Positions 1 to 61,362 of a DNA stretch of 64,000 bases are shown piece after piece (position 1 is the first letter of the stretch; every line of letters begins with the position of its first letter). Made by a program: the position numbers and the translations under genes. The notes under the pieces were generated by a model. The model made no database searches, was not told where the DNA came from, and saw nothing but the letters and a program-made list of their open reading frames with translations. The DNA comes from Squalus acanthias (taxonomy: Eukaryota). The stretch is from contig CM059432.1 of NCBI GenBank assembly GCA_030390025.1, positions 83,702,001-83,766,000 of the forward strand, in the 5' to 3' direction.

Positions 1-2359
1 GTGGGTGGGGTGCTTGGGTTGATGTGCGCTCCTTGCGCTGCCTGCGCTTAGCTTCCGCTTGCTCCCGGCGAAGAGACTCGAGGTATTCGACGCCTTCCCG
101 GATGCTTCTCCTCTACTTTGTGCGGTCTTGGGCCAGGGATTCCCAGGTGTCGCTGGGGATGTTACACTTTTTCAAGGAGGCTTTGAGGGTGTCCTTGAAG
201 CGTTTCCTCTGCCCACCTGGGCCTCTCTTGCCGTGCCGGAGCTCCGAGTAGAGCGCTTGTTTTGGGAGTCTTGTATCGGGCATGCGGACAATGTGACCTG
301 TCCATCGGAGCTGATCAAGCGTGGTCAAAGTTTCGATGCTGGGGATGTTGGCCTGAGCAAGAACACTGACGTTGGTGCGCCTATACTGCCAATGGATTTG
401 CAGGATCTGGCGGAGGCAGTGTTGGTGGTACCTCTCCAGTGCTTTGAGGTGCCTGCTGTACATGGTCCATGTCTCTGAGGCATACAGCAGGGCGGGTATC
501 ACTGCTGCTCTGTAGACCATGAGCTTAGTGCCGGGTTTGAGGTCCTGGTCTTCAAACACTCTCTTCCTCAGGTGACCGAAGGCTGCACTGGCACACTGAA
601 GGCGGTGTTGGACTTTGTCGTCGACGTCTGCCCTTGTTGACAGTAGGCTCCCGAGGTATGGAAAGTGGTCCATGTTGTCCAAGGCCTTGTCGTGGATTTT
701 GATAATCGGGGGGCAGTACTGTGTGGCGGGGGCAGGTTGGTAGAGGACCTTTGTCTTACGGATGTTTAGTGTAAGGCCCATGCTCTCGTATGCTTTGGTG
801 AAGGTGTTGACGATGGTTTGGAGTTCGACCTCGGAGTGAGCGCAGAGGCAAACGTCGTCTGCATACTGTAATTCGACAACAGAGGATGGGACGACCTTGG
901 ATCTGGACTGGAGGCGACGGAGGTTGAACAGTTTCCCGTTTGTTCTGTAAATTAGCTCCACTCCAGCGGGGAGCTTACTGAGGGTGAGATGGAGCATTGC
1001 AGCAAGGAAGATCGAGAAGAGCGTTGGTGCGATGACACAGCCTTGCTTGACCCCGGTCCGTACGTGAATTGGGTCTGTGGTGGAACCGTTGGTCAGGATC
1101 ATGGCTTGCATGTCATCGTGAAGCTGGCGGAGGATGGTGACAAACTTTTGAGGGCAGCCGAATTTGCGGAGGACACTCCATAATCCCTCACGGTTGACAG
1201 TGTCGAAGGCCTTTGTGAGATCAAAGAAGGCCATGTACAGCAGTTGGTGCTGTTCCCTGCATTTCTCTTGTAATTGACGTGCGATGAAGATCATGTCCAT
1301 TGTGCCCCTTAGTGGGCGGAATCTGCATTTTGTCTCTGGGAGGAGCTCTTCGGCCACAGGGAGAAGGCGATTGAGGAGGATTCTTGCGATGACTTTCCCT
1401 GTGGCAGACAGCAGGGAAACTCCTCTGTAATTACCGCAATCGGACTTATCACCTTTCTTGAAGATGGTCACAATTACGGCGTCTCTGAGATCCCCTGGCA
1501 TGCTCTCCTCCTTCCATATAAGAGAAATGAGTTCATGAATACACGCCAGTAGTGCTTCTCCGCCATGCTTTAGTGCCTCGGCGGGGATTCCATCTGCTCC
1601 TGAGGCCTTGTTGTTCTTCAGTTGTCGGATGGCCTTTTCAACCTCATGCCGGGCTGGGGTTGTGCTGAGATGGAGGCGGGTAGCATGCTGCGGGATGGAG
1701 TTAAGGACACTCGCGTCGAAGACAGAGTCGCGGTTAAGGAGATCTTCGAAGTGCACCTTCCAGCGGGCACTGACTGCCTCTCTGTCCTTGATGAGTACCT
1801 CTCCGTTTTTGGCCCGCAGTGGGGTAGGACCTTGGGTGCTTGGGCCGTAGGTGGTCTTGACTGCGCTAAAGAATCCACGCACGTCGTGGTTGTCGGCTAG
1901 CTGCTGGATCTCCTGCGCTTTCTCCACCCACCATCTGTTCTTTAGGTCGCGAGTTTTTTGTTGGACCTCAGCCTTCAGGCATCTGTAGAGCTGCTTTCTT
2001 GCTCTCGATTTCTGTTGCTGTTTCCAGATCAGGAATGCCTTGCGCTTGCGGCTTATTAGCTCCTGGATCTCCTGGTCGTTCTCGTCGAACCAGTCTTGGT
2101 GTTTCCTGGTTGAGTGACCGAGCGTCTCTTCAGAGGTGCTGATTATGGAGGCCTTGAGTGCAGACCAGGCGCTGTGGGCACTCTGTGTCTCTGCATCACT
2201 GGGAGTCGTCAGGTTGTTTGTGAGGCACAGGCTGAATAGGGCTTTCTTAGCGGGGTCTTTGAGTGCTCCAGCGTTAATTTTTCTGCGGCATTGTTTCTGT
2301 TGCCGCAGCTGTTTTGGGGCTACATTGATGGAGATGACAGAGCGGATTAGGCGGTGGTC
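1..2359 (-). mobile_element. RTE-clade (BovB-like) LINE, 5'-truncated; 3' end lies outside the window
   Basis: ORF 113..2608(-) from DHRLIRS (end of APE) through RT motifs FFDLTKAFDTV, GVKQGCVIAPTLF, LQYADD and the RTE C-terminal motif QLRWTGHIVRM..RLPK. TAG at 113-115 looks premature because RTE-like coding continues and 1-95 matches the RTE 3' fragment at 45136-45235. Confidence 0.93.
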
Positions 2360-5300
2360 TATATGTGACTTCAGACCCACAGCAATGTGGTTGACTCTTA
2401 ACTGCCCTCTGAAATGGCCTAGCAAGCCACTCAGTTGTAACAAACTGCTACGAAAAACAATAAAAAGAATGAAGTCAGATGGACCACCCGCCATCGACTT
2501 CGGCACCGGGTACGGACATGGCAATGGCACACCCAGCCCAGTCAACCCTGCAAAGTCCTCCTCACCAACATCTGGGGACTTGTGCCAAAATTGGGAGAGC
2601 TGTCCCACAGACTAGTCAAGCAACAGCCTGACATAGTCATACTCACAGAATCATACCTTTCAGCCAATGTCCCAAACTCCGCCATCACCATCCCTGGGTA
2701 TGTCCTGTCCCACCGGCAGGACAGACCCACCAGGGGTGGCGGCACAGTGGTATACAGTCGGGAAGGAGTGGCCCTGGGAGTCCTCAACATTGACTCCGGA
2801 CCCCATGAAGTCTCATGGCTTCAGGTCAAGCTTGGGCAAGGAAACCTCCTGCTGATTACCACCTACCGCTGACCCTCAGCTGATGAATCAGTACTGCTCC
2901 ATGTTGAACACCACTTGGAAGAAGCACTGAGAGTAGCAAGGGCACAGAATGTACTCTGGGTGGGGGACTTCAATGTCCATCACTAAGAGTGGCTCGGTAG
3001 CACCACTACTGACCGAGCTGGCCGAGTCCTGAAGGACATAGCTGCCAGTCTGGGCCTGCGACAGGTGGTGAGAGATCCAACACAAGATAAAAACCTACTT
3101 GACCTCGTCCTCACCAATCTACCTGTCGCAGATGCATCTGTCCATGACAGTATTGGTAGCAGTGACCACTGCACAGTCATTGTGGAGACGAAGTCCTGTC
3201 TTCACATTAACGACACCCTCCATCGTGTTGTGTGGCACTACCACTGTGCTAAATGGGATAGATTCAGAACAGATCTAGCAGCTCAAAACTGGGCATCCAT
3301 GAGGTGCTGTGGGCCATCAGCAGCAGCAGAATTGTATTCCACCACAATCTGTAACCTCATGGCTCGGCATAGCCCTCACTCTACCATTACCATCAAGCCA
3401 GGGGACCAACCCTGGTTCAATAAGGAGTGTAGAAGAGCATGCCAGGGAGCAGCACCAGGCGTACCTAAAAATGAGGTGCCAACCTGGGGAAGCTGCAACA
3501 CAGGACTACATGCATGCTAAAAAGCAGAAGCAGCATGCTATAGACAGGGCTAAATGATCCCACAATCAACGGATCAGATCAAAGCTCTGCAGTCCTGCCA
3601 CATCCAGTCGTGAATGGTGGCGGACAATTAAACAACTAACGGGAGGAGGAGGCTCCATGAATATCCCCAGCCTCAATGATGGTGGAGCCCAGCACATGAG
3701 TGCAAAAGACAAGGCTGAAGCGTTTGCAACCATCTTCAGCCAGAAGTGCCAAGTGGATGATCCATATCGGCCTACTCCTGAGGTCCCCACCATCACAGAA
3801 GCCAGCCTTCAGCCAATTCGATTTACTCCACGTGAAATCAAGAAACGGCTGAGCGCACTGGATACAGCAAAGGCTATGGGCCCCGACAACATCCCGGCTA
3901 TCGTGCTGAAGACTTGTGCTCCAGAACCAGCCGCGCCTCTAGCCGAGCTGTTCCAGTACAGCTACATCACTGGCATCTATCTGACAATGTGGAAAACTGC
4001 CCAGGTATGTCCTGTCCAAAAAAAGCAGGACAAATCCAACCCGGTCAATTACCGCCCCAACAGTCTACTCTCAATCATCAGCAAAGTGATGGAAGGTGTC
4101 ATCGACAGTGCTATCAAGCGGCATTTACTCACCAATAACCTGCTCACTGATGCCCAGTTTGGGTTCCGCCAAGACCACTCGGCTCCCGACCTCATTACAG
4201 CCTTGGTCCAAACATGGACAAAGGAGCTGAATTCCAGAGGTGAGGTGAGAGTGACTGCCCTTTACATCAAGGCAGCATTTGACCGAATTTGGCATCAAGG
4301 AGCCCGAGTAAAACTGAAGTCAATGGGAATCGAGGGGAAAACTCTCCACTGGCTGGAGTCATTCCTAGCATAAAGGAAGATGATTGTGGTGGTTGAAGGT
4401 CAATCATCACAGCCCCAGGACATCGCTGCAGGAGTCCCTCAGGGGAGTGTCCTGGGCCCAACCATCTTCAGCTGCTTCATCAATGACCTTCCCTCCAACA
4501 TAAGGTCAGAAATGGGGATGTTCGCTGATGACTGCACAGTGTTCAGCACCATTCACAACTCCTCAGATAATGAAGCAGTCCATGCCCGCATGCAACAAGA
4601 CCTGGACGACGTTCAGGCTTGGGCTGATAAGTGGCAGGTAACATTCGCGCCACAGAAGTGCCAGGCAATGACTATCTCCAACAAGCGAGAGTCTAACCAC
4701 CTCCCCTTGACATTCAATGGCATTACCTTCGCTGAATCCCCCACCATCAACATCCTGGGGGTCACCATTGACCAGAAACTTAACTGGACCAGCCAGATAA
4801 ATACTGTGACAACAAGAGCAGGTCAGAGGCTAGGTATTCTTTGGCAAGCGTCTCACCTCCTGACTCCCCAAAGCCTTTCCACCATCTACAAGGCACAAGT
4901 AAGGAGTTTGATGGAATATTCTCCATTTGCCTGGATGAGTGCAGCTCCAACAACACTCAAGAAGCTCAACACCATCCAGGACAAAGCAGCCCGCTTGATT
5001 GGCACCCCATCCACCACCTCAAACATTCATTCCCTCCACCACCGGCGTACCGTGGCTGCAGTGTGTACCATCTACAAGATGCACTGCAGCAACTCGCCAA
5101 GGCTTCTTCGGCAGCACCTCCCAAACCCTGCGACCTCTTCCACCTAGAAGGACAAGGGCAGCAGGCGCATGGGAACACCACCACCTCCAAGTTCCCCTCC
5201 AAGTCACACACCGTCCTGACTTAGAAGTATATCGCCGATCTTTCATCATTGCTGGGTCATAATCCTGGAACTCCCTACCTAACAGCACTGTGGGAGTACC

Positions 5301-5428
5301 TTCACCGCACGGACTGCAGCAGTTTAAGAAGGCGGCACACCACCACCTTCTTAAGGGCAATTAGGGATGGGCAATAAATGCTGGCGTTGCCAGCGACGCC
5401 CTACATTCCATAAACGAATAAAAAAAAT
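2360..5428 (+). mobile_element. Family-T LINE (single APE-RT ORF, CR1/Jockey group, Zenon-like); near full length, tRNA head missing, ORF broken by stops/frameshifts
   Basis: APE motifs KVLLTNIWGL, DIVILTESYL, GDFN, SDH; RT motifs AAFDRIWH, GVPQGSVLGP, FADD; 3' tail aagggcaattagggatgggcaataaatgctggc...gaataaaaaaaa; 5' body (cagcaatgtggttgactcttaactg) shared with the copies at ~15930 and ~52820. Confidence 0.92.
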
Positions 5429-6169
5429 GTTTTTAAACACAGGGAGCTGGCACTTCCCTGCAATCCAAACAAAACATGCACCAATGTAAAAATGCCTTAT
5501 ATGAGATTTTCACAGCACCTTTATTATATTGCTTTGAGTATAAAATTTTAATATAATAAAGGCAAACAATAGACCCTATTGCAGTGTGATATTTCTATTT
5601 TCCACACCGGCCCTCTTTGTGGCCTGCCAAGTTAAAGGTGATTATGCAGTTTTATGCTAGGAACTGTGAGTACAAGTGATTGGGTTGAAAACTATTTGAA
5701 TCCATTTCATTTAGGACCTTTGAAGATGGCAAGAAGAGTGTTTACAGCCACTCAGTGTTGACTCCGTTCAAACCCAAGCCCCACAGGTGAAAGGAAGTAT
5801 GCTAATCCACTGTGCCACCCAATCCCTTGTGTATCCTCTTGTGGTTACATTAAAAAGAAGCATTATAAAAGGAATCATAAAAGGGAAGAAAGAACAGTGG
5901 GGAAGGCAGTGTTTTATCTTTTTATCTTTCTGTTTCCTGCTGTCAGAAGAAACTCACCTTTTAAAATCTAACCTTATGGAACAAAAACACACCACTCTGG
6001 CTGACTTCAAAGTTATAGGATACTGCTGGGGCAATTTGTTTTTACACAATGAAAGAAGCTAGGCCACAGTAGTATGAGAGGGACTGGAACTGACCACCGA
6101 CAACAAAGTGATGCAAAGACATTTGCACTCGTTTCCACTGAGCACACCAAAAGCCAATAAGAGGGCCAA

Positions 6170-6742: not shown

Positions 6743-9115
6743 TTTTTTTATTCGTTCTTGGGATGTGGGCGTCGCTGGCAACGCCAGCATTTATTGCCCA
6801 TCCCTAATTGCCCTTGAGAAGGTGGTGGTGAGCCGCCTTCTTGAACCACTGCAGTCCGTGTGGTGAAGGTACTCCCACAGTGCTGTTAGGGAGGGAGTTC
6901 CAGGATTTTGACCCAACGACGGTGAAGAAACGGCAATATATTTCCAAGTCAGGATGGTGTGTACCTTGGAGGGGAACTTGGAGGTGGTGGTGTTCCCATA
7001 CGCCTGCTGCCCTTGTCCTTCTAGGTGGTAGAGGTTGCGGGTTTGGGAGGTGCTGCCGAAGAAGCCTTGGCGAGTTGCTGCAGTGCATCTTGTAGATGGT
7101 ACACACTGCAGCCATCGTACGCCGGTGGTGCAGGGAGTGAATGTTTAAGATGGTGGATGGAGTGCCAATCAAGCGGGCTGCTTTGTCCTGGATGGTGTCA
7201 AGCTTCTTGAGTGTTGTTGGAGCTGCATTCATCCAGGCAAGTGGAGAGTATTCCATCACGCTCCTGACTTGTGCCTTGTAGATGGTGGAAAGCCTTTGGG
7301 GAGTTAGGAGGTGAGACACTTGCCACAGAATACCCAGCCTCTGACCTGCTCTTGTTGCCACAGTATTTATGTGGCTGGTCCAGTTAAGTTTCTGGTCAAT
7401 GGTGACCCCCCCAGGATGTTGATGGTGGGGATTCGGCGATGGTAATGCCGTTGAATGTCAAGGGGCAGTGATTAGACTTTCTCTTGTTGGAGATAGTCAT
7501 TGCCTGTCACTTCTGTGGTGCAAATGTTACTTGCCACTTATCAGCTCAAGCCTGAATGTTAGCCAAGTCTTGCTGCATTCGGGCATGGACTGCTTCATTA
7601 TCTGAAGAGTTGCGAATGGAACTGAACACTGTGCAATCATCAGCGAACATCCCCAATTCTGACCTTATGATGGAGGGAAGGTCATTGATGAAGCAGCTGA
7701 AGATGGTTGGGCCTAGGACACTGCCCTGAGGAACTCCTGCAGCGATGTTCTGGGGCTATGATGATTGACCTCCAACAACCACAACCATCTTCCTTTGTGT
7801 GACGTATGACTCCAGTAAGTGGAGAATTTTCCCCCTGATTCCCATTGACTTCAATTTTACTAGAGCTCCTTGATGCCACACTCAGTCAAATGCTGCCTTG
7901 ATGTCAAGGACAGTCACTCTCACCTCACCTCTGGAATTCAGCTCTTTTGTCCATGTTTGGACCAAGGCTGTGATGAAGTCTGGAGCCTAGTGGTCCTGGC
8001 GGAACCCAAAGTGAGCATCAGTGAGCAGGTTGTTGGTGAGTAAGTGCCGCTTGATTGCGCTGTCTTCGACACCTTCTATCACTTTGCTGATGATTGAGAG
8101 TAGACTGATGGGGCGGTAATTGGCCGGATTGGATATGTCCTGCTTTTTGTGGACAGGACATAACTGGGAAGTTTTCCACAATGTCGGGTAGATGCCAGTG
8201 TTGTAGCTGTACTCGAACTGCTTGGCTAGAGGCACAGCTAGTTCTGGAGCACAAGTCTTCAGCACTACAGCCGGGATGTTGTTGGGGCCCATAGCCCGTA
8301 TCCAGTGCGCTCAGCCGTTTCTTAATATCACGTGGAGTGAATCAAATTAGCTGAAGACTGGCTTCTGTGATTGTGGATCATCCACTTGGCACTTCTGGCT
8401 GAAGATGGTTGCAAATGCTTCAGCCTTGTCTTTTGCACTCATGTGCTGGGCTGCTCCATCATTGAGGATGGGGATATTCCTGGAACTTCCTCCTCCCGTT
8501 AGTTGTTTAATTGTCCACCACCATTCACAACTGGATAGGGCAGGACTGCAGAGCTTTGATCTGATCCGTTGATTGTGGGATCACCTAGCTCTGTCTATAG
8601 CATGCTGCTTCCGCTGTTTAACATACATGTAATCCTGTGTTGCAGCTTCCCCAGCTTGACACCTCATTTAAAGGTACGCCTGGTGCTGCTCCTGGCATGC
8701 TCTTCTACACTCCTCATTGAACCAGGGTTGGTCCCCTGGCTTGATGGTAATGGTAGAGTGAGGAATATGCCGCGCCATGAGTTTACAGATTGTGGTGGAA
8801 TACAATTCTGCTGCTGATGGCCCACAGCCCCTCATGGATGCCCAGTTTTGAGCTGCTAGATCTGTTCTGAATCTATCCCATTTAGCATGGTGGTAGTGAC
8901 ACACATCACGATGGAGGGTGTCCTCAGTGTGAAGACGGGGCTTCGTCTCCGCAAGGGCTGTGCGGTGATCACTGCTACCAATGCTGTCATGGACAGATGC
9001 ATCTGTGACATGTAGATTGGTGAGAACGAGGCCAAGTAGGTTTTTCCCTCGTGTTGGTTCGGTCACCACCTGCCGCAGTCCTAGTCTGGCAGCTATGTCC
9101 TTCAGGACTCGGCCA
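6743..9115 (-). mobile_element. Family-T LINE, 5'-truncated, inserted in L2
   Basis: Reverse complement of the tail at 6743-6815; high similarity to ~3020-5420; L2 reading (..LQLNIG / KAVLFGP..) resumes on both sides. Confidence 0.92.
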
Positions 9116-15586: not shown

Positions 15587-16225
15587 GGACTCCCAGGGCC
15601 ACTCCCTCCCGATTGTATACCCCTGTGCCACCACCTCTGGTGGATCTGTCCTGCCGGTGGTACAGGACATACCCAGGGATGGTGTTGGAGGAGTTTGGGA
15701 CATTTGCTGAAAGGTATGATTCTGTGAGTATGACTATGTCAGGCTGTTGCTTGACTAGTCTGTGTGGGCAGCTTTCCCAATTTTGGCATATATCCCCAGA
15801 TGTTAGTGAGGAGGACTTTGCAGGGTTGGCTCGGCTGGCCTGGGTGTGCCGTTTTCGTGTCCGAAGCCAGTGGCTAGGTCGATGCCGGGTGGTCCGTCAG
15901 GTTTTATTCTTATTATTGCTTTTCGTGTAGCAGTTAAGAGTCAACCACATTGCTGTGGGTCTGGAGTCACATATTGACCAGACCAGATAAGGACGGCAGA
16001 TTTCCTTCCCTAAAGAACATTAGTGAACCAGATGGGTTTTTACGACAATCCGATGGTTTCATGGTTACCATTACTGATACTAGCTTTTTTATTCCAGATT
16101 TATTTAATTAACTGAGTTTAAATTCCCCAGCTGCCATGGTGGGATTTAGAACTCATGTCTCCGGATCATTAGTCCAGGCCTCTGGATTACTAGTCCAGTA
16201 ACATTACCACTATGCTACCTTTCCC
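15587..16225 (-). mobile_element. Family-T LINE 5' fragment with tRNA-derived head
   Basis: Minus strand: A box tagcatagtgg (16207-16217), B-box-like gagttctaaatccc (16141-16154), SINE-like body, then APE start homologous to ~2480-2780. Confidence 0.88.
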
Positions 16226-18916
16226 CTATCTATTATATTCTAAACAATTTAATATTATCAGTATCAAAAAATGTAAGACACCATGGGTGTAACTTTTGAC
16301 TTCGGCGGGTGGATAACTAGCAGTATTAGATCAGTCTCCCGTTATACACCCTGTCTGATTCTGTTTTCCATTAACCTAGCTGATCTCATTCACAGCAGCA
16401 GTAGAGGTGTCCCTGTGCTATGGCCCCGGGGAGAAAAATCAGGCAGCATTTCCACTCTTTATCACTATTCAGTAACCTCTCTGAAAAGTGCATATGGTGT
16501 CCTTAATGGATGACTAGCCAGCTGGCACTCACTGTGCAGGCTTATATGTGAAGAATAATCAGATGGGCAAGGTACCAGAGTGGCAAGCATGGGTGGAATT
16601 TTACCTAAGCATGAGTCAGAACCTCCAGGAGAGGAAGCAAAAAATTTAGAAAGAAAACGCCCACTTTGAGTCAACAGCACTCCATCAAGTATCTTTTACA
16701 TAATTCATGTAACCACTAAGATGGCTCCTTCTCCTTAGGTTTGGGGCTAGAGGAAGGTGGTGCATATATTGGGCTAGTTTATCTCATTAGCTATTTATTC
16801 CACGCATTTTAGCCGCCTCTTTACAAACTACCTAGCTGCTTCACTTGAAAGACTCCCTATTACTGAAACTAACATAACCACCCATCAATAATGCAGTTAT
16901 CCCACATGCAACTTTAAAGAAAAGTATCAACTAGCCAACAGCAGCTCATTAAGAAATAAATGCTCCCAACCCATCTCAATCATATGGAACAAAAGATATG
17001 GGCTTCATTGTGTCAAAGGGGTTACAATTTAAAATGAATACCAAAACTGTATTATATGCTTTTCCACAATAAAAAGATATTTGAAACATAACAAATGTGT
17101 TATATACTGAATATCTCAAAATTCAAGTATGCATCTATTATTCAGGTCACAATTATGTGATCCACCCAATATTGAATAAACGTTTTTCTGAAACTTTCAG
17201 TACATTAATAAATTCCTTTTCAAAGGTGCAATGCAATTTGTTGATACACTTTCATCCACAGGAAAATGAAGTGCCATGTTATAATGTACAGCAGATCCAA
17301 GCTGGAATCATTTGATATTTGACCTCTGATCTGCATCATAATTGGAATGAATCAATGGAGCCAAATTGGTGAGAAAATTATATCAATTTGTTGTTTCATC
17401 TGGTGTTGGCTCAGATTGTTTAAGGCATATTGTGTAAACAGATCCCCTGACAAATCAGCGCTCGGGAAGTGCTAACGTTCTGCTGTCTTGCACAGTGTAA
17501 GACATATCTTTGTGAGCTGACCCAGTCTCAACAAAGACTTTTGTGGTCCTCACAGACCATGCCTTCTCTTATAACATGGGCCTCATGAAATCGTTCAATT
17601 TTTAACAACACTGACCCTTAAAATAGTAATAAGTCCTGCAGCAACCTGAACCTAATGAGGTCACCACACACAGCACCAAACTGTGGATGGAAAAATAAAA
17701 TCAATATGACCACCCACTCTGCAAGACCAGCAATTTTGAAGGTTCTGACATCTAAGATTTGCTTGCAGACTTATGCTGAATGCAGATTATGAATCCAAAT
17801 CTCAGGGCAATCATGACATAAATTTCATCATAATCCAATGACTTTGACAGTAAGTGTGAAATGGCACATTTGTATTCTCCCCGCTGACTGCCATTTGCTT
17901 GGTTATTTTCCTGATGGTTTAAATGATATCATATGCTCTTTAGGCAAGTATATTTTGTATAAAATTAGAGAATATGGAAGTGAAAATCTCTCAGCAACTG
18001 TAATTAGATCCACAATCCCACATTGTGCACTGAGTTCATGAAGCCAACGTGTCAGTGCCAATGACTGATTGACATTCCCTTTAATGGCATTGTTTTAATT
18101 GCAGAAAGTGAGGAATAAACACCATCAACATTAAATATTAACACGCTCCATCTAGAGACAGTGGGGCTGGCCACAGTACTTGGCTATATTAGGTTTCAAA
18201 GCATGAATTGTGTTAGCTATTAATAATACACTACACTCAGTAAGGGCAGCCAAGCCCTCTTTTTAGCAGGGAATTAACATGGTCATTTAATTTTCACAAA
18301 CACAAAAGCGCAAATCACTGAGTTAAAGGTGATGGGTTTGCTGCATTCATTAGTGCTTGTGATGTAAAAAAAAATGGGCAGTGTTCTAAAGAAGTGGTTT
18401 AGAATTACATGGGCAGAAACTATTAAATAAGAATGCAGCTGAATGCACCTAAGATCTCCTTGGCTTAGGTGTGTGCAAGTTCAATGCCTTAATGCACACA
18501 TTGTGTAAAATAGGCAGGGATCATCAGTTCCTTAGGTTTATCTTATGCAGAAAGATTTCCCCGGTATGTATGTATCACCTTTACAATTTAGAAATTAATA
18601 GTTTTGTTGCCCACTGAAGCAATAGTAACACAACTGAGAAAAAAATTATAATTGACGCATGTGAATGATATCATTTAACTGCTGGCCTCACCATGCAATG
18701 TTGCAAAATTCATTTAAAAGATTCAAGGGTTTGCTTGCTCCTACTGAATGAAAAGATTGTGGGGGTTAATTTGGCCAAAGGGTGAAAACAGGTGCTAAAT
18801 GGGTGCAGTGCTAATAAGACTAGCCTGTTTGAAAGTCTGGATTTAGCACACAATTTTGGTCCTAATTGGTGATTACCATAATTTGAACTTCTCTGGAGGT
18901 GCTAAACAGACACCTG

Positions 18917-21322: not shown

Positions 21323-22794
21323 CGGCTATCCCTTTAAGCGGTGAGTATCCCTTTAAGTAGTGCTTGAAATAGACATCAACTCCGTGTTTACTCCCAATCA
21401 GCTGGTTGCTGTTAGGGGAGGGCGTTAGGCACCAAAATGCCGTGCAGCCTTTTTAATGAGCTTTAGCAGGCTCTTAAAGTGGCAATCAGCTGTTTAACAA
21501 GCCTCCGGGAGGCCGTTCCTAGCACTGTCTTCAACTCCTTTACCAAGATGGTGTCTTGCGCTAAACGTGGGCTAAACCGCGTTGCAGCTTAAGCTCCCAC
21601 CTTGGCCACCTCTTTAGCGCCTAAAGTATTCAACGAAAATCATCCCTGTATCATCATTGAAGAGGAATTCTTTTGCAAGTAAATATCATAACTCAGTCAT
21701 GTCTGTCTTGCACACAAGTTGTTGATCTTTCACACTTGTGAAAGAAAACTAGTAAATTGCAACCACAATTTTTTTCTCGAGATGTGGGCATCACTGGTAA
21801 TGCTGGCATTTATCGCCCATCCCTAACTGTCCTAGAGTAGGGGGAGGTGCGCCTTCTTCTTGAACCACTGCAGTCTGGTGAAGGTGTGGTGAAGGTGTTT
21901 CCAAAATGCTGTTAGGGAGGGAGTTCCAGGATTTTGACCCAGCGATGATGAAGGAAATACAAAATATGTCCAAGTCAAGATGGTGTGTGACTTGGAGGGG
22001 CACTTGGAGGTGATGATGTTATCATGCACCTGCTGCCCTTGTTCTTCTCGGTGATGGAAGTCATAGGTCTGTGAAATTCTTCTGATGAAGCCTTAGCAAC
22101 TTGCTGCAGTGCATCCTGTAGATAGTACACACTGTAGCCATGGTACATCGGTGGTGGAGGGAGTGAATGTTTAATGTGGTGGATGCACTGTCGATCAAAC
22201 AGCCTGCTTTGTCCTGGATTGTGTAAAGCTTCTTGAGAGTTGTAGCAGCTGCACCCATCCAAACAAGTGAAGAGTCTTCCATCACAATGCTGACTTGTAC
22301 CTTGTAGGTGGTGGAGAGGCTTTGGGAATCAAGAGGTGAGCCACTCGCCATAGAATATCCAGCCTCTGAACTGCTCTAGTAGCAACAGCATTTATGTGGC
22401 TTGTCCAGTTAAGTTTCTGGTCAATGGTGATACCAGGATGTTGATGGTGGGGGATTTGGCGATGGTAATGCTCTTGAATGTCATGGGGAGGTGGTTAGAC
22501 TCTCTCTTGTTGGAGGTGGTCATTGCCTGGCACTTGTGTGGTGTGAATGTTACTTGCCACTTATCAACCCAAGTTGTCCAGGTCTGGTTGCATGTGGCGC
22601 AGACTACTTCATTATCTGAGGAATTGAAAATGGAGCTGAACACCGTGCTATCATCAGCAAACAGCCCCACATCTGACCTTACGATGAAGGGAAGGTAATT
22701 GATGAAGCAGCTGAAGATAGTTGGGCTTAGGACACTGCCCTGAGGAATTCCTGGGGTGAGAAGATTGGCCTCCAACAAACATAACTATTTACCC

Positions 22795-24475: not shown

Positions 24476-24688
24476 ACCCTTTGTTCTAGGTATGACTCGA
24501 GCAATTGCAGAGATTTCCCGTGATCCCATTGACTTCAGTTTTACTAGGGCTCCTTGGTGCAACACTCAGTCGAATGCTGCCTTGATGTCAAGGGCAGTCA
24601 CTCTCACCTCTCCTCTGCAATGGCTGCCCATTACAGAAACCACCAGATTTTCATTTCCATATTAATGGAATATAAATCAGGCGATTTC

Positions 24689-46914: not shown

Positions 46915-48990
46915 TAGTGTCATCCGCAAACTTAGATATGCGGCTCTCTATTCCTTCATCCAATTCATTTATAAATATAGTGAAAAGCTGTGGCCCCAGT
47001 ACAGATCCCTGGGAGGCACCACTAGTCACATCCTGTCAATTTGCGTACATAGCCATTATCCGTACTTTCCAAACCAATTCTCTATCTAAGCCAATAGGTT
47101 GTCTCCAATTCCATGCACTCTCATTTTTGTTAACAGTCTTTTATATGGAACCTTGTCAAATGCCTTATGGAAGTCCATATAAATAACATCCATAGATAAT
47201 CCCTTAACTACCACGTTAGTAACCTCCTCAAAAAATTCAACTAGGTTTGTTCGACAAAGCCTACCCTTTACAAATCTATGCTGGCTCTCCCTGATCAGCT
47301 CATATGTCAAAATCATGTAAAGTGCTCTGTCATGATATGGTTGTTGGAGGTCAATCATCTCATCCCCAGGACATCGCTGCATGAGTTCCTCAGGGCAGTG
47401 TCCTAGGCCCAACCATCTTCAGCTGCTTCATCAATGACCTTCCCTCCAACATAAGGTCAGAAGTGGGGATGTTCACTGACGATTGCAGAGTGTTCAGTGC
47501 CATTCACAACTCTTCAGCTAATGATGCATTCCATGCCTGCATGCAGCAAGACCTGGACGACATTCAGGCTTGGGCTGATAAGTGGCAAGTAACATTCACG
47601 CCACACAAGTGCCAGGCAATGACTATCTCCAACAAGCGAGCGTCTAACTGCCGCCGCTTAACATTCAACGGCATTACCATCACCAAATCCCCCACCATCA
47701 ACATCCTGGGGGTCACCATTGACTAGAAACTTAACTGGACCAGCCACATAAATACTGTGGCTACAAGAGCAGGTCAGAGGCTAGGTATTCTGCAGTGAGT
47801 GTCTCACCTCCTTACTCCCCAAAGCCTTTCCACCATCTACAAAGCACAAGTCAGGAGTGTGATGGAATACTCTCCACTTGCAGCTCCAACAACACTCAAG
47901 AAGCTCAACACCATCTAGGACAAAGCAGCCTGCTTGATTGGCACCCCTTCCACCACCTTAAACATTCACTCCCTCCACCACCAGCGTACCGTGGCTGCAG
48001 TGTGTACCATCTACAAGATACACTGCAGCAACTCGCCAAGGCTTCTTCGGCAGCACCTCCCAAACCCGCGACCTCTACCACCTAGAAGGACAAGGGCAGC
48101 AGACACGTGGGAACACCATCACCTGCAAGTTCCCCTCCAAGTTACACACCATCCTGGCTTGGAAATATATTGCTGTTTCATCATCGCTGGGTCAAAATCC
48201 TGGAACTCCCTCCCTAACAGCACTGTGCGAGTACCTTCACCACATGGACTGCAGCGGTTCAAGAAGGCGGCTCACCACCACCTTCTCAAGGTCAATTAGG
48301 GATGGGCAATAAATGCTGGCCTTGCCAGCGACGCCCACATCCCATAAAACAAGTAAAAATAAACTATGTCCCTAATAATCGATCTTAGTAACTTCTCCAC
48401 AACTGAGATTAGACTAATAGGTCTATAATTTCCTTGTTTTTCTCTTACCCTTCTTAAATAGTGGATTGACATTGGCAATCCAAGGGAACAATTCCTGAGA
48501 CAAATCGAGACAGTTTTGGAAAATCATGACGAATGCATCAACAATTTCTTTATCTACTACTTTTAATATCCTGGGGTGGAAACCATCAGGTCCTGGAAAT
48601 CTGTCTATAGTTAATAATATTAGTTTCTCCATCACCATATTTTTACTTATATTGAATCTAGTTAGTTCCTCCCCTTGATTTATTTTTATTTTTCCTTGCA
48701 TCTCTGGTATTTTATCCTCATCCTCTACTGTGAAGACCGATACAAAGTAACTATTTAGTAAATCTGCCATTTCCTTATTTCCAATTACAATATCACCTGC
48801 ATCTGTCATTAAGGGCCCACATTACTTTTATCCACCCTCTTTCTCCTAATATATTTGTAAAACCCTTTCGTGTTGCCCTTGATATGCCTCACAAGTTTTT
48901 TCTCGTATTCCTTTTCGCGGGTCTTACCACTTTCTTTGTGCCCCTTTGCTGTTCTTTGTATCTCTCCCAGTCTGCGGGATCTCGACTGTT
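46915..48990 (-). mobile_element. CR1 ORF2 fragment split by a family-T insertion
   Basis: SQHRFVKGRLCRTNLVEFFEEVT..MDFHKAFDKVP (47090-47320) and GNKEMADLLNSYF..PGPDGFHPRILK (48420-48810). Confidence 0.82.
47338..48360 (+). mobile_element. Family-T LINE 3' fragment
   Basis: Colinear with ~4390-5425, including the tail. Confidence 0.92.
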
Positions 48991-49925: not shown

Positions 49926-52900
49926 TTTTTTTTAATCATTCATGGAATGTGGGAGACGCTGGGAAGGCCAGCATTTATTTCCCATCCCTAGTTGCCCTTG
50001 AGAAGGTGGTGGTGAGCCACCTCCTTGAACCGCTGCAGTCTGTGTGGTGAAGGTACTCCCAGAGTGTTGTTAGGGAGGGAGTTCCAGGATTTTGAACCTG
50101 GAGGGATTGTGACTTGGAGGGGAACTTGGAGGTGGTGGTGTTCCCATGTGCCTGCTGCCCTTGTCCTTCTAGGTGGAAGAGGTCATGATTTGGGAGGTGC
50201 TGCCGAAGAAGCCTTGGCAAGTTGCAGCAGTGCATCTTGTAGATGGTACACACTGCAGCCACGGTGTGCCTGGTGGTGGAGGGAGTGAATGTTTAAGGTG
50301 GTGGATGGGGTGCCAATCAAGCGGGCTGCTTTGTCTTGGATGGTGTCGAGCTTCTTGAGTGTTGTTGGAGCTGCACTCATCAGGCAAGTGGAGAGTATTC
50401 CATCACACTCCTTACTTGTGCCTTGTAGACGGTGGAAAGGCTTTGGGGAGTCAGGAGGTGAGACACTCGCCACAGAATACCCAGCCTCTGACCTGCTCTT
50501 GTTGCCACAGTATTTATATGGCTGGTCTAGTTAAGTTTCTGGTCAATGGTGACCCCCAGGATGTTGATGGTGGGGGATTTGGCGATGGTAATGCTGGTTA
50601 ATGTCAAGGGGCAGTGGTTAGACGCTCGCTTGTTGGAGATACTCATTGCCTGGTACTTGTGTGGCGCGAATGTTACCTGCCACTTTTCAGCCCAAGCCTT
50701 AATATCATCCAGGTGTTGCTGCATGCGGGCATGGACTGCTTTATTATCTGAGGAGTTGCGAATGGCACTGAACACTGTGTAGTCATCAGCGAACATCCCC
50801 ACTTCTGACCTTATGATGGAGGGAAGGTCATTGATGAAGCAGCTGAAGATGATTGGGCCTAGGACACTGCCCTGAGGAACTCCTGCAGCGATGTCCTGGG
50901 GCTGTGATGATTGACCTCCAACCACCACAACCATCTTCCTTTGTGCTAGGTATGACCCCAGCCAGTGGAGAGTTTTCCCACCGATTCCCATTGACGTCAG
51001 TTTTACTAGGGCTCCTTGATGCCACACTCGGTCAAATGCTGCCTTGATGTCAAGGGCAGTCACTCTCACCTCACCTCTGGAATTCAGCTCTTTTGTCCAT
51101 ATTTGGACCAAAGCTGTAATGAGGTCTGGAGCCAATGGTCCTGGCGGAACCCAAACTGGGCATCAATGAGCAGGCTATTGCTGAGTAAGTGCCGCTTGAT
51201 AGCACTGTCGACGACACCTTCCATCACTTTGCTGATGATTGAGAGTAGACTGATGGGGCGGTAATTGGCCGGATTGGATTTGTCCTGCTTTTTGTGGACA
51301 GGACATACCTGGGCAGTTTTCCACATTGTCGGATAGATGCCAGTGTTATAGCTAAACTGAAACATCTTGGCTAGAGGCGCAGCTAGTTCTGGAGCACAAG
51401 TCTTCAGCGCGACAGTCGGGATGTTGTTGGGGCCCACAGCCTTTGCTGTATCCAGTACCCTCAGTCGTTTCTTGATATCACGTGGAGTGAGTCGAATTGG
51501 CTGAAGACTGGCTTCTGTGATGGTAGGGACCTCAGAAGGAGGCCGATATCAGCACTTCTGGCTGAAGACATTTGCAAACGCTTCAGCCTTGTCTTTTGCA
51601 CCCACTTGCTGGGCTCCACCATCATTGAGGATGGGGATATTCATGGAGCCTCCCTCTCCCGTTAGTTGTTTAATGGTCTACCACCATTCACGACTGGATG
51701 TGGCAGGACTGCAGAGCTTTGGTCTGATCCGTTGATTGTGGGATCGCTTAGCCCTGTCTACAGCATGCTGCTTCCACTTTTTAGCATGCATGTAGTCCTG
51801 TGTTGCAGCTTCCCCAGGTTGGCATCTCATTTTTAGGTGCACCTGGTGCTGCTCCTGGCATGCTCTTCTACACTCCTTATTGAACCAGGGTTGGTCCCCT
51901 GGCTTGATGGTAATGGTAGAGTGAGGGATATGCCGAGCCATGAGGTTACAGATTGTGGTGGAATACAATTCTGCTGCTGCTGATGGCCCACAGCGCCTCA
52001 TTGATGCCCAGTTTTGAACTGCTAGATCTGTTCTGAATCTATCCCATTTAGCACGGTGGTAGTGCCACACAACACAATGGAGGGTGTCCTCAGTATTAAA
52101 ATGGGACTGCGTCTCCACAATGACTGTGCGGTGGTCACTGCTACCAATACTGACATGGACAGATGCATCTGTGACAGGTAGATTGGTGAGGACGAGGTCA
52201 AGTAGGTTTTTCCCTCGTGTTGTTTCTCTCACCTCCTGTCACAGGCCAAGACTGGCAGCTATATCCTTCAGGATTCAGCCAGCTCGGTCAGTAGTGGTGC
52301 TACCGAGCCACTCTTCATGATGGACATTGAAGTCCCCCAGCCAGAGTACATTCTGTGCCCTTGCTCCCTTCCGTGCTTCTTCCAAGTGGTGTTCAACATG
52401 GAGGAATACTGATTCATCAGCTGAGGGTGGTAATCAGCTGGAGGTTTCCTTGCCTATGCTTGACCTGAAGCCATGAGACTTCATGGGGTCCAGAGTCAAT
52501 GTTGAGGACTCCCAGGGCCACTCCTTCCCGACTGTATACCACGGTGCCGCCACCCCTGTTGGGTATGTCCTGTCCCACCAGGGATGGTGATGGAGGAGTC
52601 TGGGACATTGGCTGAAAGGTATGATTCTTTGAGTATGACTGTCAGGCTGTTGCTTGACTAGTCTGTGGGACAGCTCTCCCAATTTTGGCACAAGTCCCCA
52701 GATATTGGTAAGGAGGACTTTGCAGGGTCGACTGGGCTGGGTGTGCCGTTGTCGTGTCCATAGCCGGTGCCGAGGTCAATGCCGGGTGGTCTTTTATTCT
52801 TATTGTTTTTCACAACTGAGTGCAGTTAAGAGTCAACCACATTGCTGTGGATCTGGAGTCACATATAGGCCAGACCAGGTAAGGACGGCAGATTTCCTTG

Positions 52901-53101
52901 TCTAAAGGACCAGGGAACCAGACAATCCAATAGTTTCATGGTTACCATTACTGATACTAGTTTTTCATTCCAGATTTATTTAATTAACTGAATTTAAATT
53001 CCCCAGCTGCCGTGGTGGGATTTGCACTCACATCTCACGGATCATTCGTCCAGGCCTCTGGATTACTAGTCCAGCAACATAACCACTATGCTACTGTTCC
53101 C
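49926..53101 (-). mobile_element. Family-T LINE spanning tRNA head to tail (small internal deletions, ORF broken)
   Basis: Minus strand: gggaacagtagcatagtgg (A box 53083-53093), gagtgcaaatccc (B-box-like 53017-53029), SINE-like body, APE start MPKLGELSHRLVKQQPD, RT ALDIKAAFDRVWH..FADD, tail and A-run at ~49926-49933. Confidence 0.92.
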
Positions 53102-55161: not shown

Positions 55162-58113
55162 TCATGTCCAAATTCCTGCCCGCTCCCCGTAACCCTTAAT
55201 GCCCTTTACTTCTAGGAAACTGTCTATTTCTGTTTTAAATTTAATTAATGTTGTAGCTTCTACAGCTTTTTGTGGCAGCATATTCCATGGACCTACCACC
55301 CTCTGAGTGAAGTAGTTCCTCCTCATCTCAGTTTTGAAAGAGCAGCCCCTTATTCTAAGACTATGTCCCCTAGTTCTCGTCTCACCCGTCATCGGGAACA
55401 TCCTCCCCGCATCCACCCGATCCAACCCCTTCACAATCTTATATGTTTCAATAAGATCGCCTCTCATTCTTCTGAACTCCAATGAGTAGAGTCCCAATCT
55501 ACCCAACCTCTCCTCATATGACCACCCCCTCATCCCCGGGATTAACCGAGTGAACCTTTTTTGCACTGCCTCGAGAGCAAGGATGTCTTTCCTTAAGTAA
55601 GGACACCAAAACTGTATGCAGTATTCCAGGTGCGGTCTCACCAATACCTTGTACAACTGAAGCAATACCTCCCTATTTTTATATTCTATCCCCCTAGCAA
55701 TGAAAGCCAACATTCCATTTGCCTTCTTAATCACTTGCTGCACCTGCATACTAACCTTTTGAGTTTCGTGCACCAGGACCCCCAGATCCCTTTGCACTTC
55801 AGTACTCTCCAGTTTCTTGCCATTAAGATAATAAATTGCTCTAGGATTTTTCCTGCCAAAGTGCATCACCTCACACTTTCCAGTGTTGTATTCCATCTGC
55901 CAAATCTCTGCCCACTTACTTAGCCTGTCTATGTCCCCTTGCAGGTTTTTTATGTCCTCCTCACTCACTACTTTCCCTCCCATCTTTGTATCATCTGCAA
56001 ATTTTGATATGTTACACTTGGTCCCTTCCTCCAAATCGTTAATATAGATTGTGAAGAGTTGGGGACCCAGCACTGACCCCTGTGGAACACCACTAGTTAC
56101 TGATTGCCAGTCTGAGAATGAACCATTTATCCCAACTCTTTGCTTTCTGTTAGATAGCCAATCCTCTATCCATGCCAGAATATTACCCCCAATCCCGTGA
56201 TTTTTTACCTTAAGCAATAATCTTTTGTGTGGCACCTTGTCAAATGCCTTTTGGAAGTCTAAATACACTACGTCCACTGGTTCCCCTTTATCCACTCTAT
56301 ATGTTACTTCCTCAAAGAACTCCAGCAAATTTGTCAAACATGACTTCCCCTTCGTAAAACCATGCTGACTTTGTCCTATTAAATTATGATTATCCAAATG
56401 TCCTGTTACTGGTTCCTTAATAATGGACTCCAAAATTTTACCTACCACAGATGTTAGGCTAACCGGTCTATAGTTACCAGCCTTCTGTCTACTGCCCTTT
56501 TTAAATAAGGGTGTTACATTAGCAGTTTTCCAGTCTGCCGGGACCTTAGCGGAATCCAGGGAGTTTTGAAAAATTATTACCAATGCATCTACAATCCCTA
56601 CCGCCACTTCCTTCAAGACTCTAGGATGTAAGCCATCCGGTCCAGGTGATTTATCCGCCTTGAGTCCCATTATTTTACCGAGTACCACTTCCTTAGTGAT
56701 TTTGATCGTGTTTAGCTCCTCTCCCCCTATAGCCCCCTGTTTGTCCAGTGTTGGGATATTCTTAGTGTCCTCTACTGTAAAGACTGATACAAAATATTCA
56801 TTCAGTGTTTTTGCCATCTCCATATTTCCCACCATTAATTTCCCGGTCTCATCCTCTAAGGGACCAACATTTACTTTAGCCACCCTTTTTCTTTTTATAT
56901 AACTATAAAAACTCTTACTATCTGTTTTTATATTTTTTGCTAATTTACTTTCATAATCTATCTTCCCTTTCTTAATCAATCTTTTTGTTATTTTTTGCTG
57001 CCTTTTAAAGTTTTCCCAATCCTCTGTCCTCCCACTAGATTTCGCTACCTTATATGCCCTTGTTTTTAGTCGAATACTATCCTTAATTTCTTTACTTAGC
57101 CACGGATGACTGTCCTTTCTTTTACACCCTTTTCTTTTCAGTGGAATATATTTTTTTTGGAAGTTGTAAAATAACTCCTTGAATGTACACCACTGATCAT
57201 GTGTCGTCTTACCCTTTAATCTATTTTCCCAATCCACTCTACTCAATTCCGCTCGCATACCTTCATAGTCTCCTTTATTCAAGCTTAGCACGCTTGTTTG
57301 AGATCCAACCTTCTCACCCTCTAATTGAATATGGAATTCAACCATGTTATGGTCACTCATTCCAAGGGGATCCTTTACTAGGACATTTTTAATTAATCCT
57401 GTCTCGTTACACAGGACCAGATCTAAGGTTGCTTGCCCCCTGGTCGGTTCAGTTACATACTGCTCAAGAAACCCATCCCTAATACACTCAATGAACTCAT
57501 CCTCAAGGCAGCCCTGCCCCATTTGATTTGTCCAATTAATATGATAGTTAAAATCCCCCATAATTATAGATGTTCCCTTATTACATGCCTCAACTATTTC
57601 CTGATTGATACTCCGTCCAATAGAGTTGCAACTGTTCGGAGGCCTATAGACTACGCCCACTAATGTTTTTTTCCCCTTATTATTCCTTATCTCCACCCAA
57701 ACTGTTTCATTATCATGATTTTTTGACCCAATATCATTACTCTGTATTACAGTGATTCCTTCCTTTATTAACATAGCCACCCCACCTCCCCTTCCTTCCT
57801 GCCTGTCCTTCCTGATCGTTAAATAACCTGGTATGTTTAATTCCCAGGCATTGTCACCCTGCAGCCATGTTTCTGTAATGGCCACAATATCATAACCATA
57901 TGTAGTTAATTGTGCCATTAACTCGTCTATTTTGTTACGAATGCTATGTGCATTCAGATAGAGAACTTTCAAATATGCTTTGTGGCACTTAGTTCCTGCT
58001 TTTTCACTTTTTACCAGTTTACCTTTTACTCCACACACTCTGTCCCTTCCTGCCACGCTCTGATTTGTGATTCCCCTACTGCTACCTATGTCTATGACCC
58101 TCTCTGTTGTCAT
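55162..58113 (-). CDS. CR1 ORF2: APE endonuclease plus reverse transcriptase, uninterrupted 983 aa
   Basis: YLNAHSIRNK, AITETW, GDFN, SDH (APE); YLDFQKAFDKVPH, GVPQGSVLGP, FADD (RT); no internal stop. Confidence 0.95.
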   Translation of the reverse strand: MTTERVIDIGSSRGITNQSVAGRDRVCGVKGKLVKSEKAGTKCHKAYLKVLYLNAHSIRNKIDELMAQLTTYGYDIVAITETWLQGDNAWELNIPGYLTIRKDRQEGRGGGVAMLIKEGITVIQSNDIGSKNHDNETVWVEIRNNKGKKTLVGVVYRPPNSCNSIGRSINQEIVEACNKGTSIIMGDFNYHINWTNQMGQGCLEDEFIECIRDGFLEQYVTEPTRGQATLDLVLCNETGLIKNVLVKDPLGMSDHNMVEFHIQLEGEKVGSQTSVLSLNKGDYEGMRAELSRVDWENRLKGKTTHDQWCTFKELFYNFQKKYIPLKRKGCKRKDSHPWLSKEIKDSIRLKTRAYKVAKSSGRTEDWENFKRQQKITKRLIKKGKIDYESKLAKNIKTDSKSFYSYIKRKRVAKVNVGPLEDETGKLMVGNMEMAKTLNEYFVSVFTVEDTKNIPTLDKQGAIGGEELNTIKITKEVVLGKIMGLKADKSPGPDGLHPRVLKEVAVGIVDALVIIFQNSLDSAKVPADWKTANVTPLFKKGSRQKAGNYRPVSLTSVVGKILESIIKEPVTGHLDNHNLIGQSQHGFTKGKSCLTNLLEFFEEVTYRVDKGEPVDVVYLDFQKAFDKVPHKRLLLKVKNHGIGGNILAWIEDWLSNRKQRVGINGSFSDWQSVTSGVPQGSVLGPQLFTIYINDLEEGTKCNISKFADDTKMGGKVVSEEDIKNLQGDIDRLSKWAEIWQMEYNTGKCEVMHFGRKNPRAIYYLNGKKLESTEVQRDLGVLVHETQKVSMQVQQVIKKANGMLAFIARGIEYKNREVLLQLYKVLVRPHLEYCIQFWCPYLRKDILALEAVQKRFTRLIPGMRGWSYEERLGRLGLYSLEFRRMRGDLIETYKIVKGLDRVDAGRMFPMTGETRTRGHSLRIRGCSFKTEMRRNYFTQRVVGPWNMLPQKAVEATTLIKFKTEIDSFLEVKGIKGYGERAGIWT

Positions 58114-58151
58114 TTTTATTTTTTGCTCTCTTGAAACCTCCCCCCCACTAA

Positions 58152-58850
58152 TTAGTTTAAAGCCCTCTCCACAGCCCTAGTTATTCGATTCGCCAGGACA
58201 CTAGTCCCAGCACTGGCCAAGTGAAGTCCGTCCCAACGGAACAGCTCTCTCCTGCCCCAGTACTGGTGCCAGTGTCCCAAGAAGCAAAACCCATTTTTCC
58301 CACACCAGTCTTTGAGCCACGCATTCAACTCCCTGATTTTATTTACCCTAGCCAAATTTGCTCGTGGCTCAGGTAGTAATCCAGAGATTATTACCCTCGA
58401 GGTTCTGCTTTTTAATTTGGCCCCTAGCTGCTCAAACTCCCTCAGCAGAACCTCTTTCCTTGTCCTATCTATGTCATTGGTACCAACATGGACCACGACA
58501 ACTGGATCCTCCCCCTCCCACTCCAAGTTTCTCTCCAGCCCAGAGGAGATGTCCTTAACCCTGGCACCGGGCAGGCAACACAGCCTTCGGGACTCTCGCT
58601 CTTGGCTGCAAAGAACCCTATCTATCCCCCTAATGATACTATCCCCTACCACGACAACATTTCTTTTTACTCCCCCCACTTGAATGGCCCCCCTTACCAC
58701 GGTGCTGTGGCCAGGTTGCTCATCCTCCCTGCAGTCCCCGCTCCTATCCACACAGGGAGTAAGAGCCTCGAACCTGTTGGACAAGAGCAAGGGCTGCGGC
58801 TCCTCCAACACTACCTCCTGGATCCCTGTACCTGCCTCACTCGTAGTCAC
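58152..58850 (-). CDS. CR1 ORF1 C-terminal SGNH/GDSL esterase domain (5'-truncated)
   Basis: VVGDS, PGAR, HVGTND and DGLHL blocks of the SGNH hydrolase fold. Confidence 0.9.
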   Translation of the reverse strand: MTTSEAGTGIQEVVLEEPQPLLLSNRFEALTPCVDRSGDCREDEQPGHSTVVRGAIQVGGVKRNVVVVGDSIIRGIDRVLCSQERESRRLCCLPGARVKDISSGLERNLEWEGEDPVVVVHVGTNDIDRTRKEVLLREFEQLGAKLKSRTSRVIISGLLPEPRANLARVNKIRELNAWLKDWCGKNGFCFLGHWHQYWGRRELFRWDGLHLASAGTSVLANRITRAVERALN

Positions 58851-61300: not shown

Positions 61301-61362
61301 TGAGAGGTCGCACAACACCAGGTTATAGTCCAACAGTTTTATTTGAAATCACAAGCTTTCGG
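61301..61362 (-). mobile_element. Isolated Penelope pseudo-LTR fragment
   Basis: Close match to 62826-62887. Confidence 0.85.

Follow-up and report, generated by a model that had tools for sequence, protein, structure and literature searches.

Can a long interspersed nuclear element (LINE) that encodes its own endonuclease and reverse transcriptase (RT) be transcribed from end to end by the enzyme RNA polymerase III (Pol III)? This question is raised by a 64,000-nt stretch of the Squalus acanthias genome (assembly GCA_030390025.1, contig CM059432.1, positions 83,702,001 to 83,766,000 of the forward strand; hereafter the window), in which a LINE copy of about 3 kb has no TTTT on its sense strand. 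Vertebrate Pol III terminates at four or more T, and a sequence-only reading of the window had proposed that terminators are selected against in this family, as expected for a long Pol III transcript. Our results indicate that the stretch is a dead, 5′-truncated member of the elasmobranch Zenon LINE family, that no 5′ end other than a tRNA-like head carrying A and B boxes was found for this family, and that its sense strand, once TT, TTT and TVTTT are counted along with TTTT, is depleted beyond every control. These observations lead us to favour, with some reserve, Pol III as the enzyme that makes the full-length RNA of active Zenon masters.

Results

A long gap without T runs in a dead Zenon copy

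The copy and its parts lie in the window as follows (T4, T5 and A8 denote runs of that length).

2355..5427, + strand: Zenon LINE copy, dead, 5′-truncated, without the tRNA-like head; family positions 244-3305, 96.7% identical to the family majority, no sense T4
2441..5364, + strand: remnant of the APE-endonuclease and RT frame, with stops and frameshifts; start mapped by hand
2564..2581, + strand: first endonuclease motif (TNIWGL); no upstream in-frame AUG in the family majority
5373..5394, + strand: AATAAA followed by a 3′ hairpin (GCTGGC/GCCAGC), probably the stem-loop recognised by RT
5420..5427, + strand: A8 tail
5430..5434, + strand: T5 in flanking DNA, two bases behind the A tail; other copies show no excess of such runs there

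Other members of the family, and two elements that served as controls, are found in the same window.

49926..53101, - strand: near full-length Zenon copy with the tRNA-like head; 91% identical to the majority, private T4 at 52098-52101
15587..16225, - strand: second head-bearing Zenon copy, family positions 1-672
6743..9115, - strand: 5′-truncated Zenon copy, family positions 908-3305, no sense T4
47338..48362, + strand: 5′-truncated Zenon copy, family positions 2275-3300, no sense T4
21768..22790, - strand: old, decayed Zenon copy (83.6%) with three private T4
24478..24621, - strand: small internal Zenon fragment
1..2359, - strand: RTE LINE copy (control, no tRNA head seen), no sense T4, joined 5′-to-5′ to the Zenon copy
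55162..58176, - strand: intact CR1 ORF2 (control), eight T4 runs, matching its composition

On the + strand no run of four or more T occurs between 2312-2315 and 5430-5434, a gap of 3118 nt and the longest TTTT-free stretch when both strands of the window are compared. Our recount agrees with the sequence-only reading on the absence of sense TTTT from 2360 to 5428 and on the T5 at 5430-5434 as the first run, and also on the counts given for the other elements: none at 6743-9115, at 47338-48362 and in the RTE copy, one at 49926-53101, three at 21768-22790 and several (eight) in the CR1 ORF2. The four to seven runs that had been expected by eye were an overestimate. With a T content of 20.1% across 2360-5428, base, dinucleotide and trinucleotide shuffles give 3.9, 2.1 and 1.6 runs against none observed (P = 0.011, 0.076 and 0.12). 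The absence is real, yet marginal with respect to chance when this copy is taken alone, and the T4-free copies of the window are not independent evidence, because all descend from one master. The copy had also been described as rich in TTT, which does not hold for the family: its majority has 7 TTT against 20.4 expected, and the 14 of the window copy are due to decay. This copy has also gained two TCTTT (4838 and 5239). The T5 behind the tail was considered as a special signal and judged to be chance, given that T4 stands behind other 3′ ends at the background rate. Likewise, the proposal that 21768-22790 is an older subfamily was rejected, its best genomic matches being ordinary Zenon copies.

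The Zenon family

A family majority was built from 25 long copies, and a second one from 158 segments (262 kb); the latter differs from the first at 14 sites, still has no T4 and contains 7 TTT. The element measures 3306 nt and consists of a 329-nt leader, a frame of 973 codons from stop to stop, a 55-nt trailer that contains a hairpin, and an A tail; poly(A) tails were listed at 63 Zenon 3′ ends. One single frame contains Exo_endo_phos (Pfam E-values of 1e-4 and 1e-3, below the cut-off) and RVT_1. No ORF1 was found, the leader of 329 nt holding no further long upstream frame, and the family therefore lacks the esterase ORF1 that marks canonical CR1. The Zenon protein is 28% identical to that of the CR1 ORF2 of the window, and in an RT tree, which included no named Zenon reference, the family is provisionally placed with single-frame relatives and apart from this CR1 (92/98, not starred). 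A search across the 3.7-Gb genome with the head of copy 49926-53101 returned 5811 first-look candidates.

The family has been described before. Stuart et al. 2026 (PMC13343379) published the CarCar, HypSab, RhiTyp, ScyCan and SquAca Zenon LINEs, which share with ours the single APE and RT frame, the absence of ORF1, the poly(A) tail and the length of about 3.3 kb; the sequence is not different either, given that the visible first 400 nt of SquAca_Zenon-1 match our majority nearly letter for letter, by eye. In the main text of that paper the words 'tRNA', 'Pol III' and 'polymerase' do not occur, and it discusses neither the head nor the terminator purge nor the missing AUG. Public gene models of sharks and rays hold in-frame pieces of the Zenon protein (56-84% identity), which may be annotation errors or exonisation. 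Among 18 pattern matches in the viral contigs scanned, there were no relatives.

A tRNA-like head as the only 5′ end

The head is present in the near full-length copy of the window.

53014..53094, - strand: tRNA-like head of copy 49926-53101 (Rfam tRNA, 22.2 bits, E-value 0.063, below the 29-bit cut-off)
53093-53083, - strand: A box of this head
53029-53018, - strand: B box of this head, with one change in that copy

The Rfam match spans positions 7-64 of the tRNA model only, and comprises the D arm, the anticodon arm, an extra hairpin and the T arm; the acceptor stem is absent, and ARAGORN predicted no tRNA gene anywhere in the window. Most of 74 heads have a sharp, G-rich start that is followed after 8 nt by the A box (TAGCATAGTGG), and upstream of this start the 74 share no sequence. 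Both boxes are present in the 47 aligned heads. When loci were selected by the head, 36 of 39 continued into the coding part. When they were selected by the start of the frame, 12 of 39 reached the head, and the remaining 27 ended at scattered points (family positions 33-338) with unrelated flanks, one of them owing to a deletion inside the head; no alternative shared 5′ end was found among these 39. The tRNA-like head is thus the only Zenon 5′ end found.

Conservation in other species was assessed by eye in the first 400 nt visible of the published sequences. In the five consensuses from sharks and rays both boxes are retained while their spacer varies, and TTTT is absent. Two hagfish rows and one coelacanth Zenon row have no such head, and TTTT is present in them.

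The 340-nt leader folds no better than shuffled sequences (z = -0.80). It is CpG-poor (observed/expected 0.42), lacks the RTE-type start AAGATGGC, and has within its first 140 nt two AATAAA and one ATTAAA. The full-length RTE of the same genome begins with CAAGATGGC, which we take to resemble a YY1 site as in L1, and has T4/T5 within its first 130 nt. No Rfam ribozyme family matched in 52700-53600, and no consistent target-site duplication was detected in about 30 full-length copies. A G precedes the start in 4 of 47 heads, a count that is uninformative as a test for a cap-derived extra G because the element itself begins with GGG.

TT, TTT and terminator motifs are depleted beyond the controls

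TTTT and TVTTT have been reported as the shortest working terminators in mammalian cells, the latter with an efficiency of 20-50% (PMC8466645). Neither occurs in the Zenon family majority. Synonymous-codon permutation predicts 3.46 (P = 0.011), a value somewhat flattered because the motif set was picked after the T4 result was known; whole-codon shuffles give P = 0.019, and base shuffles of the whole element predict 7.1 (P = 0.0006). The antisense strand of the same majority has 19 such terminators, and the A, C and G analogues of these motifs are not depleted. In the frame, under synonymous-codon permutation, runs of three or more T number 5 against 11.2 (P = 0.006), and TT 75 against 91.4, with none of 3000 permutations as low. 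Phe makes up 2.1% of the Zenon protein compared with 4.3% at aligned positions, and is as low in 2 of 105 protein relatives.

Three controls came from the same genome: a majority of 20 RTE copies, the intact CR1 ORF2, and the 3′ half of an L2 majority, likewise of 20 copies. Of 80 metagenome relatives, 72 served as outside controls, the other eight being excluded for frames shorter than 500 aa. T4 or TVTTT was observed 4 times against 5.9 expected in RTE, 16 against 16.6 in CR1 and 9 against 8.2 in L2, and each of the 72 relatives has at least eight (lowest ratio 0.69, median 0.97). The observed/expected ratios of TT and TTT are 0.70 and 0.25 in Zenon, below those of all 72 relatives (minimum 0.76 and 0.54), compared with 0.98 and 0.86 in RTE, 1.09 and 1.11 in CR1, and 0.88 and 0.74 in L2. 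The metagenome relatives differ further from the Zenon family in having in-frame AUGs and ordinary T runs. Head-less status was judged by eye in nine of them and in the hagfish and coelacanth rows; Rfam found no tRNA in the 18 of 80 loci scanned, and many of the metagenome contigs may miss the true 5′ end.

The Zenon copies contain 44 T4 in all, each in one or two copies, which indicates decay after insertion.

Coding selection and the start of translation

Variants shared by many copies are synonymous in 52 cases and replacing in 32, compared with 1037 and 2875 for private variants, indicating that Zenon masters have been selected for their protein. In the family majority the first in-frame Met is residue 287, and the first endonuclease motif stands well ahead of it, at residue 43; among the 72 relatives, all 26 with a recognisable motif carry an in-frame Met ahead of that motif. 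A 48-codon frame (window 2470-2615, + strand), shifted by one base and overlapping the start of the main frame, opens with an AUG at family position 358. This AUG is present in 46 of 85 copies and, by eye, in about four of the five species' consensuses, among them that of the dogfish, with the whale shark as a further case. Translation may start at a non-AUG codon, by frameshifting from the 48-codon frame, or at a fold resembling an internal ribosome entry site. A predicted fold just before the endonuclease motif (window 2500-2550, family positions 380-435) contains a TCGAC/GTCGA pairing, which has no support from covariation because it is invariant in the rows visible. Many of the metagenome relatives have a GD(I/V)ExNPGP peptide before the endonuclease, presumably 2A-like.

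A 445-nt deletion form and the 3′ end

In a short form of 445 nt, leader positions 1-340 are followed directly by the final 107 nt of Zenon, and both parts are 99% identical to the long element. All 30 loci examined fit a ladder of junction lengths and are about 95% identical to their own majority. There were 5287 first-look candidates for this form, and its joint was found in contigs of four out of four runs (three other organisms, and one run presumed to be RNA), which cover the element as well. Its existence implies that the RT works in trans. The 445-nt form has the size and non-coding character of a SINE2 element (100-700 bp), which the 3306-nt form, with its selected frame, does not; it may also resemble the amniote repeat AmnSINE2.

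T4 occurs within 50 nt of 24 of the 63 Zenon 3′ ends, in about 11 cases inside the A tail. The remaining 13 or so of 52 (hand count) match the 23% background at random window positions. The possibility that T runs in the tails are relics of Pol III termination was rejected, in view of the fact that T runs before A runs extend alike across the genome (0.29/0.55/0.50 at tail-like sites vs 0.35/0.51/0.46 elsewhere). In loci of the same genome T4 precedes 3.4% of runs of five or more A, and many A tails become TnAn. The A tail is preceded at 40 nt by an AATAAA. In the majority no terminator follows this hexamer, unlike in T+ short interspersed nuclear elements (SINEs), whose polyadenylated Pol III RNAs have AATAAA and then a terminator ahead of the tail.

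Other elements in the window

The RTE (- strand) and Zenon (+ strand) copies, both 5′-truncated, meet head to head at about 2340-2365, where a few bases are shared, and the 5′ part of the RTE is not resumed beyond the Zenon tail. Frames at 53882-54385 (+ strand) and 60656-61237 (- strand) presumably represent Myb/SANT and Harbinger-type transposase pieces. An 82-bp inverted repeat (97.6%; 62822-62902 and 63248-63329, separated by about 350 bp), of which a further, partial copy lies at 61301-61362, is possibly a miniature inverted-repeat transposable element. Two segments near the head-bearing copies, 53260-53500 (- strand) and 16370-16560 (+ strand), are taken by us to resemble LF-SINE.

Discussion

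Zenon and known systems

Elements that share one or another trait with Zenon are known. The hagfish, coelacanth (CR1-5_LCh) and lepidopteran Zenons belong to the same group and have a single frame and an A tail; they differ in lacking the head, and the hagfish and coelacanth leaders contain TTTT. Persaeus is an internal-deletion element of Zenon and, like the 445-nt form, a short derivative of head and tail, although it has neither homology to tRNA, 5S or 7SL nor a Pol III promoter (PMC6740152). The 445-nt form fits the plan of tRNA-derived SINEs (SINE2), for instance the bipartite Bov-tA, with a tRNA-like head bearing A and B boxes, a body and a LINE tail, according to the account in PMC5786205. 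In contrast to SINE2, the long form of Zenon reaches 3.3 kb and encodes its own endonuclease and RT; here it is the LINE that owns the head, and the SINE-like form derives from it by deletion. RTE-1_DAn and the elements related to it, of the RTE clade, are LINEs with a tRNA-like sequence, to which PMC5786205 devotes one sentence that leaves its position, promoter use and T runs undescribed. Helenus, Ajax and Cassandra (TRIMp3) are retroelements other than SINEs with Pol III promoters derived from small RNAs; as presented in PMC10886601, they differ from Zenon in being of the long terminal repeat type, non-coding and at most 1263 bp long. The literature covered, from which most subscription papers and Repbase fell outside, held no proposal that Zenon or another autonomous LINE is transcribed by Pol III. 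The Zenon family is thus already published, with the head visible in its consensuses, and the proposed link to tRNA and Pol III appears to be new.

Transcription by Pol III and its rivals

We consider it somewhat probable that in active Zenon masters the full-length RNA is made by Pol III from the A and B boxes of the head. TFIIIC would bind these boxes, and Pol III would run about 3.3 kb through the frame and halt at the first T run in the flanking DNA. Transcription of Alu by Pol III stops in this way, at the first flanking T run. A master that acquired an internal terminator would yield RNA without the 3′ hairpin and leave no progeny; the purge of T-run terminators from the sense strand is proposed to be a consequence of such end-to-end transcription. 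Translation of the uncapped RNA would be cap-independent and begin at a codon other than AUG, and RT would prime at the A tail. The fuller proposal is of an autonomous protein-coding LINE made wholly by Pol III as a 3.3-kb uncapped RNA that starts at tRNA-type A/B boxes. Selection on codons, and even on Phe use, would keep terminators out of it, translation would have a non-AUG start, and the element would persist in sharks and rays and give rise to a SINE of its own by internal deletion. In our judgement the chances of this are about even. The title of a 1995 paper reportedly states that Pol III can make functional mRNA.

Several points weigh against this interpretation, and some of them favour instead an RNA polymerase II (Pol II) promoter within the 340-nt leader, the head then being the relic of a captured SINE and the lack of T runs a product of the T-poor strand bias of ORF1-less LINEs together with chance. 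The Rfam score of the head is 22.2 bits, below the cut-off of 29. T4 taken alone is not depleted significantly in the frame (0 vs 1.84 under synonymous-codon permutation, P = 0.12), nor was it after dinucleotide control (P = 0.08), and that part of the earlier claim of terminator avoidance does not stand. TVTTT was added after this weak result, and its efficiencies come from mammalian cells. The head-less RTE of the same genome, with 17% T, has a T4-free stretch of 3.7 kb, longer than that of the window copy, and its frame shows 1 T4 against 3.4 expected, so that in T4 it is equally depleted. Avoidance of T before T at silent sites is also seen in the CR1 (odds ratio 0.55, vs 0.43 in Zenon), and part of the signal may therefore be host-wide. 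The metagenome relatives are distant (28-41% identity), their hosts are richer in T, and the regression based on them is an extrapolation. No T4 is created by any of the 105 shared variants, where by our estimate under one was expected, which gives this comparison no power. The AATAAA 40 nt ahead of the A tail also suits Pol II. All the evidence comes from one lineage and from sequence only. Pol III products are generally deemed unfit for translation, and some Pol III promoters (type 3) recruit Pol II, as stated in PMC6023835; SINEs are given a length of 100-700 bp and LINEs are treated as Pol II units in PMC10886601.

Other observations speak against a Pol II promoter, which we regard as unlikely without being far-fetched. 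The full RTE keeps T4/T5 in its leader, a T5 at its stop codon and three TVTTT in its frame, whereas Zenon is clean from end to end, and the depletion of TT, TTT and TVTTT sets Zenon apart from RTE (TT and TTT at 0.98 and 0.86, as opposed to 0.70 and 0.25), CR1, L2 and the 72 relatives; in this respect terminator avoidance is upheld. Both boxes are conserved in sharks and in a ray, and their spacer changes. The leader is poor in CpG, without AAGATGGC and with three polyadenylation-like hexamers (two AATAAA, one ATTAAA) near its start, and cap-dependent scanning would meet no suitable AUG. In a division of labour, Pol III RNA would serve as the DNA template and the protein would be supplied in trans from other transcripts, made by Pol II or by read-through, so that Zenon would behave like a very long SINE. 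This would account for the head, for the sharpness of the start and for the lack of terminators with no need to translate uncapped RNA, and the 445-nt form shows that the RT acts in trans. We nevertheless find it quite improbable: purifying selection along the master lineages (52:32 vs 1037:2875) is easiest to understand if each copy relies on the protein that it encodes, the missing AUG stays unexplained, and the upstream flanks have nothing in common, contrary to what read-through masters would show. RNase P needs an acceptor stem, which the Rfam match (positions 7-64) lacks. This makes it very doubtful that the head is a processing signal, at which the element would be released from longer Pol II transcripts of the host by cleavage of the RNase P type, in the manner of the ribozymes of R2 and RTE; the absence of a ribozyme family match in 52700-53600 argues against it too, and the terminator purge would not be predicted. 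The head, the 5′ end and the missing AUG are consistent with transcription of Zenon by Pol III, so that the long Pol III transcript of the earlier claim gains in plausibility and stays a conjecture as regards the polymerase itself.

By the working rule, as set out in PMC10886601 and PMC6023835, LINEs are Pol II units, SINEs are Pol III units, and Pol III RNA is short and non-coding. Should the interpretation be wrong, Zenon would still be an unremarked SINE-headed LINE. If it is right, a natural coding Pol III retrotransposon of 3.3 kb, present in thousands of copies, breaks this rule and would offer a natural test case for the processivity of Pol III and for cap-independent, non-AUG translation in vertebrates. 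It would also reveal a route to SINEs in which the LINE already bears the tRNA head.

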